From NCBI GenBank assembly GCA_036378295.1, contig DASUWS010000232.1, forward strand, positions 10,387-74,386: 64,000 nt of DNA, in the 5' to 3' direction. Every line of letters starts with the position of its first letter. Within the stretch, counting starts at the first letter, position 1. The stretch comes from Ktedonobacterales bacterium (GTDB lineage: Bacteria; Chloroflexota; Ktedonobacteria; Ktedonobacterales; JADMIN01). The position numbers were made by a program, and so were the translations under genes. Below the pieces are notes generated by a model. It saw nothing but the letters and a program-made list of their open reading frames with translations. It did no database searches and had not been told where the DNA came from. Positions 24,614 to 60,550 of the stretch are shown here, piece after piece.

Positions 24614-24637
24614 CCCCTCCCCTCGCGGGGGGAGGGG
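24614..24637. repeat. CCCCTCCCC/GGGGAGGGG hairpin (family member)
   Basis: A 9-bp perfect stem with a 6-nt loop. A third small hairpin, GAGAGG-tccg-CCTCTC at 24645-24660, abuts the aspS stop. Confidence 0.8.
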
Positions 24638-26012: not shown

Positions 26013-26248
26013 GAGAATGCTCCTATGCGTGTGCTAATCCTGGCCTGCCATCCTGTTTGCTGTTGATGCTGGGAAGGACGCCCCTGGCAGACCAGCCACA
26101 CTGGCATCACGCATTTCTCAGGCGTCTCCCCCCGGGTTGGCGTCCCCGGTATCGTCGTCGTCATCCATCGCATGTCTCTCCTTGAAACTGTCCCCTCTCC
26201 GTGTCGGGGAGGGGGAACACAACGGGCTGGGATGGGGTGGCGCGCGTA

Positions 26249-26278
26249 CAATCAATGCGCATGCAATCAATGCGCATA
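26249..26278. repeat. 15-bp tandem repeat (CAATCAATGCGCAT[G/A]) x2
   Basis: Copies lie at 26249-26263 and 26264-26278. Each contains the palindrome ATGCGCAT. The repeat sits immediately 3' (on the minus strand) of the T-box terminator U-tract. Confidence 0.9.
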
Positions 26279-26317
26279 CAAAAAGCCCTCATCCTCACAA
26301 TTCTGGAGGACGAGGGC
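26278..26317 (-). terminator. Intrinsic terminator of the T-box leader
   Basis: On the minus strand, GCCCUCGUCCUC (complement of 26306-26317), an 8-9 nt loop and GAGGAUGAGGGC (26285-26296) form 12 bp with one G-U pair. UUUUUGU follows at 26278-26284. Confidence 0.85.
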
Positions 26318-26459
26318 CTACGCGCCGGCTCGTGGTGCCACCACCATTCGCTCCGGTGCACTGCGATGCGAACCATACGCAACGGAGCCTCTCTGGCCAG
26401 CCATGATACGCTGACCATTCGCGCGCTAACGGGCGCATCCCGACTCCGGCTACTGAGCG

Positions 26460-26481
26460 CATAGGATCGGCATAGGATCGG
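26460..26481. repeat. 11-bp tandem duplication inside the T-box Stem I region
   Basis: The plus strand reads CATAGGATCGG twice. On the leader strand this is CCGAUCCUAUG twice, and each copy carries GAU. Confidence 0.9.
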
Positions 26482-26606
26482 CGCAGGTTCACCGGGTGGC
26501 TCTGGGAGGTCTGTCGGGCTGGTCCGCGTCGGCGCTCGCAGCATACGCGCCGCTCTCTGCATCGCTGGCAACAACCAAACGGTTCCCATCACAGCCGTAT
26601 AGCGCA

Positions 26607-26636
26607 ACTGTATCACATGACGAGGGGAGCTATCAA
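26607..26636 (-). promoter_or_regulatory. Candidate promoter for the aspS T-box leader
   Basis: On the minus strand, TTGATA (complement of 26631-26636) is followed by an 18-nt spacer and TACAGT (26607-26612). The -10 is preceded by TGA, which is extended -10 like. Confidence 0.45.
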
Positions 26637-26753: not shown

Positions 26754-27125
26754 ATGAGATTCGGTTTGTTCTTGCTGCGGTGGGCATTGAATGCTCTCGC
26801 GCTGCTTGGTGTCGCGTGGCTGCTGAAGGATATCCACGCGACGGTTGCAGGCGCTATCCTGGCGGCGTTGGTGATTGGCATTCTCAACGCGGTCATCGGC
26901 CCGATCCTCAGGCTGCTGACGTTCCCCATCACCATCGTGACGCTCGGCCTCTTTCTGCTGGTGATCAATGCGGTGCTCTTCTGGCTGGCATCGCTCATCA
27001 CCCCAGACTTCCAGGTGACGAGCCTGTTCGCGGTCATCGTGGGTTCGATCCTCTACTCGATCCTGACCACGATCATCTCCTTCGTTGTGCGCAGCCCCAG
27101 ACGATCTGACGCGGCCAATAAGTAG
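26754..27125 (+). CDS. Phage-holin-4_2/DUF360 family membrane protein
   Basis: The translation shows MRFGLFLLRWALNALALLGVAWLL, GILNAVIGPILRLLTFPITIVTLGLFLLVINAVLFWLAS and four TM segments. GGGAGG lies 8 nt upstream of the ATG at 26754. Confidence 0.7.
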   Translation: MRFGLFLLRWALNALALLGVAWLLKDIHATVAGAILAALVIGILNAVIGPILRLLTFPITIVTLGLFLLVINAVLFWLASLITPDFQVTSLFAVIVGSILYSILTTIISFVVRSPRRSDAANK

Positions 27126-27874: not shown

Positions 27875-27898
27875 CCCCCTCCCTGCCCTGGGAGGGGG
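27875..27898 (+). terminator. Intrinsic terminator of dps (CCCCCTCCC/GGGAGGGGG family hairpin + T-tract)
   Basis: A 9-bp perfect stem with a 6-nt loop, followed by CTTTTTGTATC. Confidence 0.85.
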
Positions 27899-32604: not shown

Positions 32605-32627
32605 CCCCTCCCTGTATCGGGGAGGGG
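32605..32627. terminator. CCCCTCCC/GGGAGGGG hairpin + T-tract between convergent PIG-L and sufU genes
   Basis: An 8-bp stem with a 7-nt loop, followed by TATTTTCGCG. Confidence 0.7.
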
Positions 32628-60524: not shown

Positions 60525-60550
60525 CCCCCTCCCCCAGTACAGGGAGGGGG
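60525..60550. terminator. CCCCCTCCC/GGGAGGGGG hairpin + T-rich tract between convergent genes
   Basis: A 9-bp perfect stem with an 8-nt loop, followed by TTGTCTTTAGGCTTCTTTTG. Confidence 0.75.

Follow-up and report, generated by a model that had tools for sequence, protein, structure and literature searches.

The subject of this study is the leader of aspS, a gene on the minus strand of a 64,000-nucleotide (nt) stretch of DNA from a Ktedonobacterales bacterium (contig DASUWS010000232.1, positions 10,387 to 74,386), which was analysed at its full length and is referred to below as the window. The leaders of this lineage carry, in the direction of transcription, a T-box riboswitch and then, between its terminator and the start codon of the gene, a conserved short open reading frame (ORF) rich in aspartate and asparagine codons (the mini-ORF; its aspartate and asparagine residues and their codons are called D/N below), two covarying helices, and the potential for a further pairing, named P0, that reaches the aspS start site. 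The positions of these features are collected in Table 1.

The aspS product, aspartyl-tRNA synthetase (AspRS), scored 532 bits against the model NF003483 (cut-off 353) and 386 bits against TIGR00458 (cut-off 368). Both NCBIfam models describe aspartate--tRNA(Asn) ligase, and the closest homologues, which are from Ktedonobacterales and other Chloroflexota, bear the same name. An initial annotation of the region, made from the letters alone, had called the gene an archaeal-type aspS, and these scores above the cut-offs bear it out. Judged from its sequence, the enzyme is predicted to charge both tRNA-Asp and tRNA-Asn. Chloroflexi are described as having no asparaginyl-tRNA synthetase and as making Asn-tRNA-Asn from Asp-tRNA-Asn (PMC2494555).

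Table 1. Features of the aspS leader and gene in the window (SD, Shine-Dalgarno sequence; bp, base pairs; aa, amino acids; A1, alignment of 23 modules described in the text)
Feature	Position	Strand	Sequence and remarks
Promoter candidate	26636-26607	-	-35 TTGATA at 26636-26631, 18-nt spacer, extended -10 TG-n-TACAGT ending at 26607; consensus scan
Asp T-box riboswitch	26601-26303	-	RF00230 model positions 1-219, full-length
K-turn	26595-26584	-	GCUGUGAUGGGA, paired with UCCCAGAGC; covariance-model alignment
AG bay	26559-26551	-	CAGAGAGCG; aligns to the AGAGA positions of the model; conserved in the clade
Distal loop	26543-26533	-	UGCUGCGAGCG; aligns to the distal-loop positions of the model; conserved in the clade
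Specifier	26511-26509	-	GAC (Asp), in the order GCUGUGAUGGGA ... GAC-C-UCCCAGAGC
AGUA	26457-26448	-	
F-box	within 26436-26421	-	
Stem III	26389-26350	-	
T-box core	26348-26329	-	AAUGGUGGUGGCACCACGAG, with UGGC bulge
Terminator arms	26318-26306 and 26296-26284	-	GGCCCUCGUCCUC / GAGGAUGAGGGCU; 13 bp, then UUUUUGU to 26278
15-nt tandem repeat	26242-26281	-	2.7 copies; TRF
GC-rich hairpin	26192-26214	-	CCCCUCCCC-gacac-GGAGAGGGG (CCCCTC...GAGGGG); dispersed hairpin family
Mini-ORF SD	26183-26176	-	AAGGAGAG; 7 nt ahead of the ATG
Mini-ORF	26168-26118	-	MDDDDDTGDANPGGDA; 16 codons and stop; stop codon 26120-26118
alpha	26131-26120	-	GGGGAGACGCCU; last four mini-ORF codons and U of the stop; A1 columns 14-25
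L1 / P0 5' strand	26123-26096	-	GCCUGAGAAAUGCGUGAUGCCAGUGUGG; stop codon and downstream; shares GCCU with alpha
H5	26095-26086	-	CUGGUCUGCC; 5' arm of H5:H3; A1 columns 67-75
beta	26084-26071	-	GGGGCGUCCUUCCC; pyrimidine-rich, in the H5:H3 loop; complements alpha, one bulged C
L3 loop	26070-26050	-	AGCAUCAACAGCAAACAGGAU; CA-rich, G-poor; read from sequence
H3	26049-26040	-	GGCAGGCCAG; 3' arm of H5:H3
P0 3' strand and aspS initiation region	26034-26009	-	GCACACGCAUAGGAGCAUUCUCAUGC; SD AGGAG 26024-26020, ATG 26012-26010
aspS	26012-24660	-	nondiscriminating (archaeal-type) aspartyl-tRNA synthetase, 450 aa; NCBIfam

The T-box riboswitch upstream of aspS

A search with the Rfam T-box model RF00230 gave a full-length match of 49.9 bits, with E = 8.6e-10 when the region alone was searched and E = 6.1e-8 when the whole window was searched on both strands with all 4227 Rfam families. 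This window-wide scan returned nothing besides the T-box at E<=1e-4. The match predicted by the initial annotation is significant, but it stays below the Rfam gathering score of 93. For comparison, 160 loci encoding relatives of the window AspRS were fetched, and the aspS leaders of ten of them (L001, L009, L010, L033, L056, L092, L096, L122, L130 and L159) were scored with the same model. All ten matched at full length with 46-63 bits, every one below 93, so the low score is a lineage trait and not decay. At the Rfam gathering score, annotation would overlook every aspS T-box that was tested from this Chloroflexota clade.

The AG bay, AGUA, F-box, T-box core and terminator followed by UUUUUGU were all found on the minus strand where the initial annotation had placed them. 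Its GA motif GCGAUGC was misplaced, because this sequence adjoins the AG bay and the aligned K-turn is GCUGUGAUGGGA; the terminator it had described is present, with arms one base pair longer than the 12 bp it had given. Stem I has the K-turn at its base and carries a specifier loop whose codon, GAC, matches the regulated gene, and the AG bay and the distal loop together form the distal Stem I platform for the tRNA elbow. The T-box sequence shows the UGGN bulge, and CUCGUCCUC is common to the 3' strand of the antiterminator and the 5' arm of the terminator, the antiterminator excluding the terminator downstream. The terminator forms in the minimum-free-energy fold, and together with its U-run it is kept in all aligned relatives. 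As for the promoter candidate, the consensus scan detected one site of this type where 0.2 were expected, which agrees with the initial proposal, and in the clade alignment a TTGAC...TGnTAtAGT arrangement of the relatives aligns with it.

The T-box is conserved in the relatives. The core TGG[C/T]ACCACG was found upstream of aspS at 77 of 80 genome loci and at 143 loci overall, all in related Chloroflexota, and an alignment of 32 leaders showed that the full architecture is conserved from the extended -10 promoter through the terminator. The specifier position could be parsed in 125 leaders. It is occupied by GAC in about 113 of these, and the canonical A follows in 101; about 12 GAC leaders, including those of the window and its nearest relative, have C or U after the specifier in place of the usual A. 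Besides the window, where the base in question is 26508, a C or U after the specifier was seen in L001, L037, L041, L067, L068, L072, L111, L138, L145 and L148. Six leaders (L006, L057, L097, L103, L130 and L144) have the Asn codon AAC as specifier, at a position about 200-250 nt upstream of the T-box core, and all six have a UGGU bulge. Since GAC and AAC occur at the same position, the T-box of aspS in this clade reads tRNA-Asp or, one transition away, tRNA-Asn, and the switch of the specifier to AAC in six relatives shows selection for tRNA-Asn sensing at aspS.

Several side observations concern the T-box region. L130 pairs its Asn T-box with a D/N mini-ORF. Seven loci (L048, L064, L066, L075, L076, L141 and L155) have two T-box cores 95-190 nt apart upstream of aspS, a distance too short for two complete T-boxes; these may be duplicated antiterminator/terminator modules. 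In the window, 11 nt within the T-box are exactly duplicated in tandem (GCCGAUCCUAU x 2.2, 26459-26482). The duplication falls in a loop of variable length between Stem I and the AGUA/F-box region, and it is missing in the closest relative, L001.

The Asp/Asn mini-ORF

From the U-run of the terminator to the aspS ATG there are 265 nt, as the initial annotation had counted. Leaders without a mini-ORF typically have about 110 nt between the T-box core and aspS, and leaders with one have 198-419 nt, so that the spacer of the window is indeed unusually long for this clade. To call it repeat-filled, however, is incomplete, because its main content, which the initial annotation had missed, is an SD sequence, the mini-ORF and a conserved fold.

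The mini-ORF of the window reads ATG GAT GAC GAC GAC GAT ACC GGG GAC GCC AAC CCG GGG GGA GAC GCC TGA, in which eight of the 16 codons specify Asp (seven) or Asn (one). About 40 relatives, most of which are labelled Ktedonobacteria with few exceptions, have a D/N-rich mini-ORF in the same place, after the terminator of the T-box and ahead of aspS; examples of the encoded peptides are MDNDGDDNDREEGTEHL in Dictyobacter alpinus, MESDDGNDDDDNNTINILGST in Ktedonobacter robiniae, and MNDEDADDNDNDDNDDNDRRVCAL. Culturable relatives with the module include D. alpinus, D. aurantiacus, D. kobayashii and K. robiniae (loci L033, L041, L037 and L056). With mini-ORFs defined by an ATG start, 6-40 codons, at least 4 D/N residues and a D/N content of at least 25%, their rate was 1.59 per kb in the T-box-to-aspS spacers and 0.016 per kb elsewhere at the same loci on both strands, an enrichment of about 96-fold. 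A purine-rich, SD-like motif lies 4-10 nt ahead of the mini-ORF ATG at every locus printed. No D/N mini-ORF was found in the long spacers of the relatives outside the Ktedonobacteria.

The substitutions in the mini-ORF are of the coding type. Within the sublineage of the window, the variable sites in codons 2-12 number 0, 2 and 5 at the first, second and third codon positions, respectively; the third-position changes are mostly synonymous (GAC/GAT, GGG/GGA, AAC/AAT), and the peptide is nearly invariant. The mean pairwise identity in this sublineage is 0.92 in the mini-ORF, 0.34 in the segment upstream and 0.64 in the segment downstream. Between close relatives, Asp and Asn are exchanged for each other, for example in MDHDNDRDDNDLWEGV and MDHDNNRDDNNLWEGV. 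By its codons, its SD sequence and its coding-type substitutions, the mini-ORF is a short ORF of the attenuator kind, in which codons matching the function of the downstream gene are over-represented. A test of reading-frame openness was undiscriminating, because the +1 frame is open too in 20 of 23 loci. Two longer spacer ORFs, of 113 aa and 208 aa, were rejected because they extend into the T-box or the aspS start and show no conservation as ORFs.

A covarying, pseudoknot-type fold downstream of the mini-ORF start

The mini-ORF and the region downstream of it contain four strands, alpha, H5, beta and H3, which pair as alpha:beta and H5:H3. To assess these pairings, 23 distinct modules were aligned by unsupervised MAFFT (alignment A1). 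The results showed that 93.9% of the alpha:beta cells and 96.6% of the H5:H3 cells are paired, and that both sides have changed in 6 of the 12 alpha:beta pairs and in 6 of the 9 H5:H3 pairs. When the partners were slid by 1-3 columns, 38-48% were paired, and none of 500 shuffles matched the observed values, although the shuffle controls overstate the significance because the compared sequences are related. RNAalifold recovered H5:H3 independently, and RNAduplex gave -21.1 kcal/mol for the alpha:beta duplex of the window. Because the strands follow one another as alpha, H5, beta, H3, the two helices interleave in the manner of an H-type pseudoknot; 1-2 nt separate H5 from beta. The length of the L3 loop in A1 is about 8-30 nt, and its sequence is not conserved.

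Every mini-ORF has an H5:H3 hairpin downstream, and in 23 of 23 loci the mini-ORF reads fully through alpha; therefore, a ribosome finishing the mini-ORF must unwind alpha:beta. The peptides end in EEG, WEG, WER or GDA because the pairing of alpha demands a GGAAGG-like RNA. A variant was seen in L137 (1382-1500), where alpha (GGAAUACACCUG) lies just past the mini-ORF stop and not inside the ORF. All four strands of L137 are unrelated in sequence to those of the other loci, but they interleave in the usual succession of alpha, H5, beta and H3. Two other roles of the fold were considered and rejected: programmed frameshifting at the pseudoknot, as there is no conserved slippery heptamer ahead of alpha, and mimicry of a tRNA anticodon in the beta loop, as there is no conserved GUC or GUU.

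A scan for intrinsic terminators between 26118 and 26012 found none, save a weak hairpin inside aspS, and neither the window nor the relatives have a U-run after H3. Without such a terminator, the module does not count as a classical transcription attenuator.

The P0 helix and the aspS start site

When single sequences were folded to minimum free energy, the RNA running from the mini-ORF stop codon up to H5 paired with that between H3 and the aspS AUG. This pairing, P0, lengthens H5:H3 into a long hairpin. The window's P0 is formed by UGAGAAAUGC and GCAUUCUCA, the latter situated between the aspS SD and the AUG, and the G of the AUG is paired as well; the duplex has -21.1 kcal/mol (z -2.3) and is iso-energetic with alpha:beta. 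The stop region is paired with the aspS SD/AUG throughout the window's sublineage, in ten of ten members, and the sequences involved differ (AAUGC/GCAUU, GGAUAC/GUAUUU, CCUGAA/UUCAGG and GAGAC/GUCUC). On geometric grounds, the long P0-extended H5:H3 hairpin and alpha:beta should be mutually exclusive, because P0 and alpha share GCCU and the gap between H5 and beta is 1-2 nt.

Direct pairing of beta with the SD was rejected as a general means of sequestration, since its mean z is -0.27. The exceptions are L122 and L131, whose start region mimics alpha, so that the ribosome-binding site of aspS is paired by beta (z about -2.1). Sequestration by P0 and sequestration by beta would follow one logic, as judged from the predicted folds: the formation of alpha:beta would free the aspS start site.

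The upstream part of the spacer

The segment from the terminator to the mini-ORF SD is hypervariable, with 97-186 nt of unrelated sequence in each relative and a mean pairwise identity of 0.34 in a sublineage whose AspRS are 85-99% identical. The tandem repeat of period 15 and the CCCCTC/GAGGGG hairpin, both of which had been pointed out in the initial annotation and were found again here, lie in this segment. The repeat is missing in the closest relatives, whose sequence at that place is unrelated. Hairpins of the CCCCTC...GAGGGG type occur at five sites of the window, where 0.1 were expected, and among the relatives the spacer hairpin is common to L001 and L161 only. By these sequence comparisons, the repeats and the hairpin are lineage-specific filler within the hypervariable segment, unconnected to a second regulatory layer. 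The initial annotation had offered a second layer or repeat insertion as alternatives; each is partly right, in a different part of the spacer, the repeats belonging to the hypervariable segment and the layer to the mini-ORF and the fold, which that annotation had not seen.

Further copies of the hairpin family are located at 24614-24637, 27876-27897, 32605-32627 and 60526-60549. The first of them lies 23 nt past the aspS stop and may be the aspS terminator. The spacer of L091 is filled with similar GC hairpins. In L100 (1100-1250), the T-box and aspS are separated by a spacer of 504 nt without a D/N mini-ORF, in which a 15-nt tandem array reads (IGNSV)n in one frame.

Neighbouring genes

The divergent neighbour of aspS, at 26754-27125 on the plus strand, encodes a small membrane protein of the Phage_holin_4_2 family, and a ferritin-like gene comes next. 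The synteny of the holin-family and ferritin-like genes with aspS is kept throughout the window's sublineage (L161-L170).

Proposed mechanism and alternative explanations

We consider it fairly probable that the aspS leader carries two sensors in series, first the T-box and then the mini-ORF with its pseudoknot, the latter sensing the stalling of ribosomes at Asp and Asn codons. Uncharged tRNA-Asp would stabilise the antiterminator and let RNA polymerase pass the terminator (26318-26278). On the read-through transcripts, the mini-ORF would be translated, and the pseudoknot formed by alpha:beta and H5:H3 would compete with the P0-extended H5:H3 hairpin. With Asp-tRNA-Asp and Asn-tRNA-Asn plentiful, the ribosome would reach the stop through alpha and alpha:beta would not form, so that the long hairpin (or beta) would shut the aspS ribosome-binding site and expression would be low. 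With either charged tRNA scarce, the ribosome would stall in the D/N run, which starts at codon 2 or 3, and leave alpha free; the pseudoknot could then form, P0 would be excluded by the shared nucleotides and by sterics, and aspS would be translated. The mini-ORF would add a read-out of tRNA-Asn, because the enzyme makes both Asp-tRNA-Asp and the precursor of Asn-tRNA-Asn, and a T-box specific for Asp is blind to the latter. The geometry allows such stalling: in 23 of 23 loci alpha stays free when the ribosome sits at the first D/N codon, and over all positions alpha is left free by 128 of 151 D/N codons if the helicase edge is set at +8 from the A-site codon and by 87 of 151 at a conservative +13. 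The anatomy is well supported and the mechanism moderately so; which way the switch works, and that translation initiation is its output, are things that we infer.

Several observations weigh against this reading. The T-box falls short of the gathering score, so that a default search comes back empty and the sensitive mode is needed, and the 64-kb window contains no tRNA gene whose discriminator base could be compared with the UGGC bulge. The translation of the mini-ORF is something that we infer from its sequence features. The mini-ORF of the window has a single Asn codon and for that reason would mostly repeat the Asp signal of the T-box. Depending on the helicase edge, a ribosome stalled at 15-42% of the D/N codons would be so near alpha as to unwind that strand, which is at odds with the simple model. 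As no nucleotide is common to alpha:beta and H5:H3, the two helices may coexist permanently as a static pseudoknot with no switch; the inflated significance of the shuffle controls also counts here. Of the three helices, P0 is by far the weakest, with z below -2 in just 8 of 23 loci and a mean of -1.3. Finally, in L092, L096, L101 and L108 the aspS SD is predicted to be free in all states and the long hairpin ends immediately 5' of it; therefore, occlusion of the start site is not a universal output, and on these predicted folds the output of the module may differ between lineages.

The same parts might serve another output, namely elongation as opposed to premature Rho-dependent termination or RNA decay, with L3 and beta serving to load Rho. 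The pseudoknot would conceal this loading site and the hairpin state would uncover it, for which the leaders of tna, mgtA and corA are the comparison. We regard this as unlikely, if still worth keeping in view. It would fit that no locus has an intrinsic terminator after H3, that the aspS SD is never sequestered in the L092 group, that the L3 loops are C/A-rich at many loci, and that actinobacterial leader peptides without terminators have been proposed to work via Rho (PMC1262725), whereas the shortness of L3 and its lack of sequence conservation do not favour it, and the pairing of the stop region with the aspS SD/AUG in ten of ten relatives of the window's lineage points to translation control. 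That pairing could also be read with the opposite polarity, or as simple coupling: the stop codon lies inside the 5' strand of P0 in the window's lineage, so that a terminating ribosome must unwind P0 and could thereby open the aspS start, and masking of the stop region raises the predicted accessibility of the SD at several loci (from 0.29 to 0.44 in the window). Stalling at D/N codons would then lower expression, which would be anti-homeostatic for a synthetase whose T-box is switched on by uncharged tRNA-Asp. Such coupling would also leave the strongly covarying alpha:beta without a role and the pairing of beta with the ribosome-binding site in L122 and L131 unexplained, while the enrichment of codons for the enzyme's own products points to relief on starvation, which is what every leader-peptide attenuator known to us brings about. 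We think this polarity quite improbable.

Synthetases that autoregulate via an operator RNA are known, E. coli thrS being the example of tRNA mimicry, and the pseudoknot might likewise be a site for a protein or ligand, such as AspRS itself, with the run of GAY/AAY serving as an RNA motif and not as a translated sensor. The good conservation of the pseudoknot, and the fact that its helices share no nucleotides and are possibly static, would suit such a site. On the other hand, the loop has no conserved anticodon-like GUC/GUU, with beta varying among GCGUCC, GCGCCC, GCGCGC, GUGUCC and GCACAC; the D/N run always comes with an SD, an in-frame ATG and a stop after alpha; and the third-position variation fits coding. 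We hold this explanation to be very improbable. It is scarcely credible, finally, that the T-box is the only regulator and that the 265-nt spacer is a non-functional 5' untranslated region swollen by insertions of repeats and hairpins. The 15-nt repeats and the GC hairpin are indeed lineage-specific, the segment around them shows just 34% identity between close relatives, and 112 of 143 relatives get by with a T-box alone and a short spacer. Yet the 3' 160 nt of the spacer are conserved across about 40 loci, and the SD, the ATG, the 96-fold enriched D/N-rich ORF, its coding-type substitutions and the two compensated helices contradict this view.

Returning to two sensors in series, we propose tentatively that the module may represent an undescribed class of cis-regulatory RNA of Ktedonobacteria: a dual-input translational attenuator in which one mini-ORF would read the charging of both tRNA-Asp and tRNA-Asn and an H-type pseudoknot would act as the anti-sequestrator, in series with a T-box, lineages reaching tRNA-Asn sensing either in this way or by the switch of the specifier from GAC to AAC. 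If this is true, one leader would integrate a signal of uncharged tRNA at the level of transcription with a signal of charged-tRNA supply at the level of translation. The finding offers a testable model of how one synthetase is balanced against two demands in organisms with the indirect pathway to Asn-tRNA-Asn, and with it comes an RNA motif, supported by covariation, that Rfam lacks.

Comparison with known systems

In its upstream half, the leader follows the usual plan of a transcriptional T-box (RF00230), with K-turn, specifier loop, elbow platform, bulge and terminator. Unlike typical T-boxes, those of this clade score below the threshold throughout, their specifier toggles between GAC and AAC, and in the window a C takes the place of the conserved purine after the specifier. 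Asn-specific T-boxes were reportedly described by Saad et al. in 2012 on nondiscriminating AspRS/GatCAB operons in Clostridium. A full-text search of the literature found no Asp/Asn leader peptide and no combination of a T-box and a leader peptide on aspS.

Classical leader-peptide attenuators of synthetase genes are those of pheST in gamma-proteobacteria and of leuS and trpS in Streptomyces (PMC1262725). The module resembles them in having a short ORF that is enriched in codons of the synthetase downstream and overlaps an alternatively folding RNA. The classical attenuators differ in that they end in an intrinsic terminator with a U-run, which the region downstream of the mini-ORF lacks, have no T-box in series and respond to one amino acid each.

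The closest system in anatomy is the LEU element predicted upstream of leuA in Actinobacteria (Seliverstov et al. 2005, PMC1262725), in which an ORF with a run of regulatory codons is combined with a base stem reaching the SD and with a pseudoknot that alternates with a hairpin; it has no intrinsic terminator. The module shares with the mechanism predicted for LEU the upstream ORF, the conserved choice between pseudoknot and alternative hairpin, the lack of an intrinsic terminator and, as a candidate, the stem involving the SD. When it was examined as a LEU-type element, its interleaved helices were strongly supported, and the stem with the SD, P0, was supported in the window's lineage and not in all lineages. 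The codon run of LEU is itself the strand paired with the SD, whereas the D/N run here is unpaired and alpha and the stop region pair; LEU is also without a T-box and stands on a biosynthetic gene. No sequence similarity between the LEU element and the module was found.

T-boxes and leader-peptide attenuators are the two classic readers of tRNA charging and are normally treated as the alternatives of different phyla. To our knowledge, the anti-TRAP operon of B. subtilis is the only established case in which both are stacked on one leader. Completed translation of its leader, rtpLP, is said, following Chen and Yanofsky, to repress and stalling to relieve; the leader stop reportedly adjoins the target SD, where the terminating ribosome blocks directly. 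The mini-ORF stop of the window is not beside the SD but 106 nt upstream of the aspS ATG, and the signal would pass via the alternative between covarying pseudoknot and hairpin instead of a direct steric block. In the anti-TRAP operon (rtpA/yczA), a T-box for Trp precedes rtpLP, a leader peptide containing three Trp codons (Chen and Yanofsky 2003, 2004, cited in PMC10327191), and the citing article speaks of 'tRNA-dependent ribosome stalling' in the rtpA leader (PMC10327191). This is the closest system in logic. In both leaders, a T-box that gates transcription and its terminator are followed by a short ORF rich in codons of the same amino acid, which in the case of rtpLP gates translation downstream; in the window the order is terminator, mini-ORF (26168-26118) and aspS (26012), and the GAC specifier is answered by seven GAY codons. 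The aspS leader differs from that of rtpA in that the regulated gene is the synthetase itself, that the codons belong to two tRNAs (Asp and Asn), both of them substrates of the enzyme, and that the host is a member of the Chloroflexota and not of the Bacillota. The same stacking appears independently in Chloroflexota, on a synthetase gene serving two tRNAs, where the T-box reads just one of them and a mixed Asp/Asn mini-ORF could report both.

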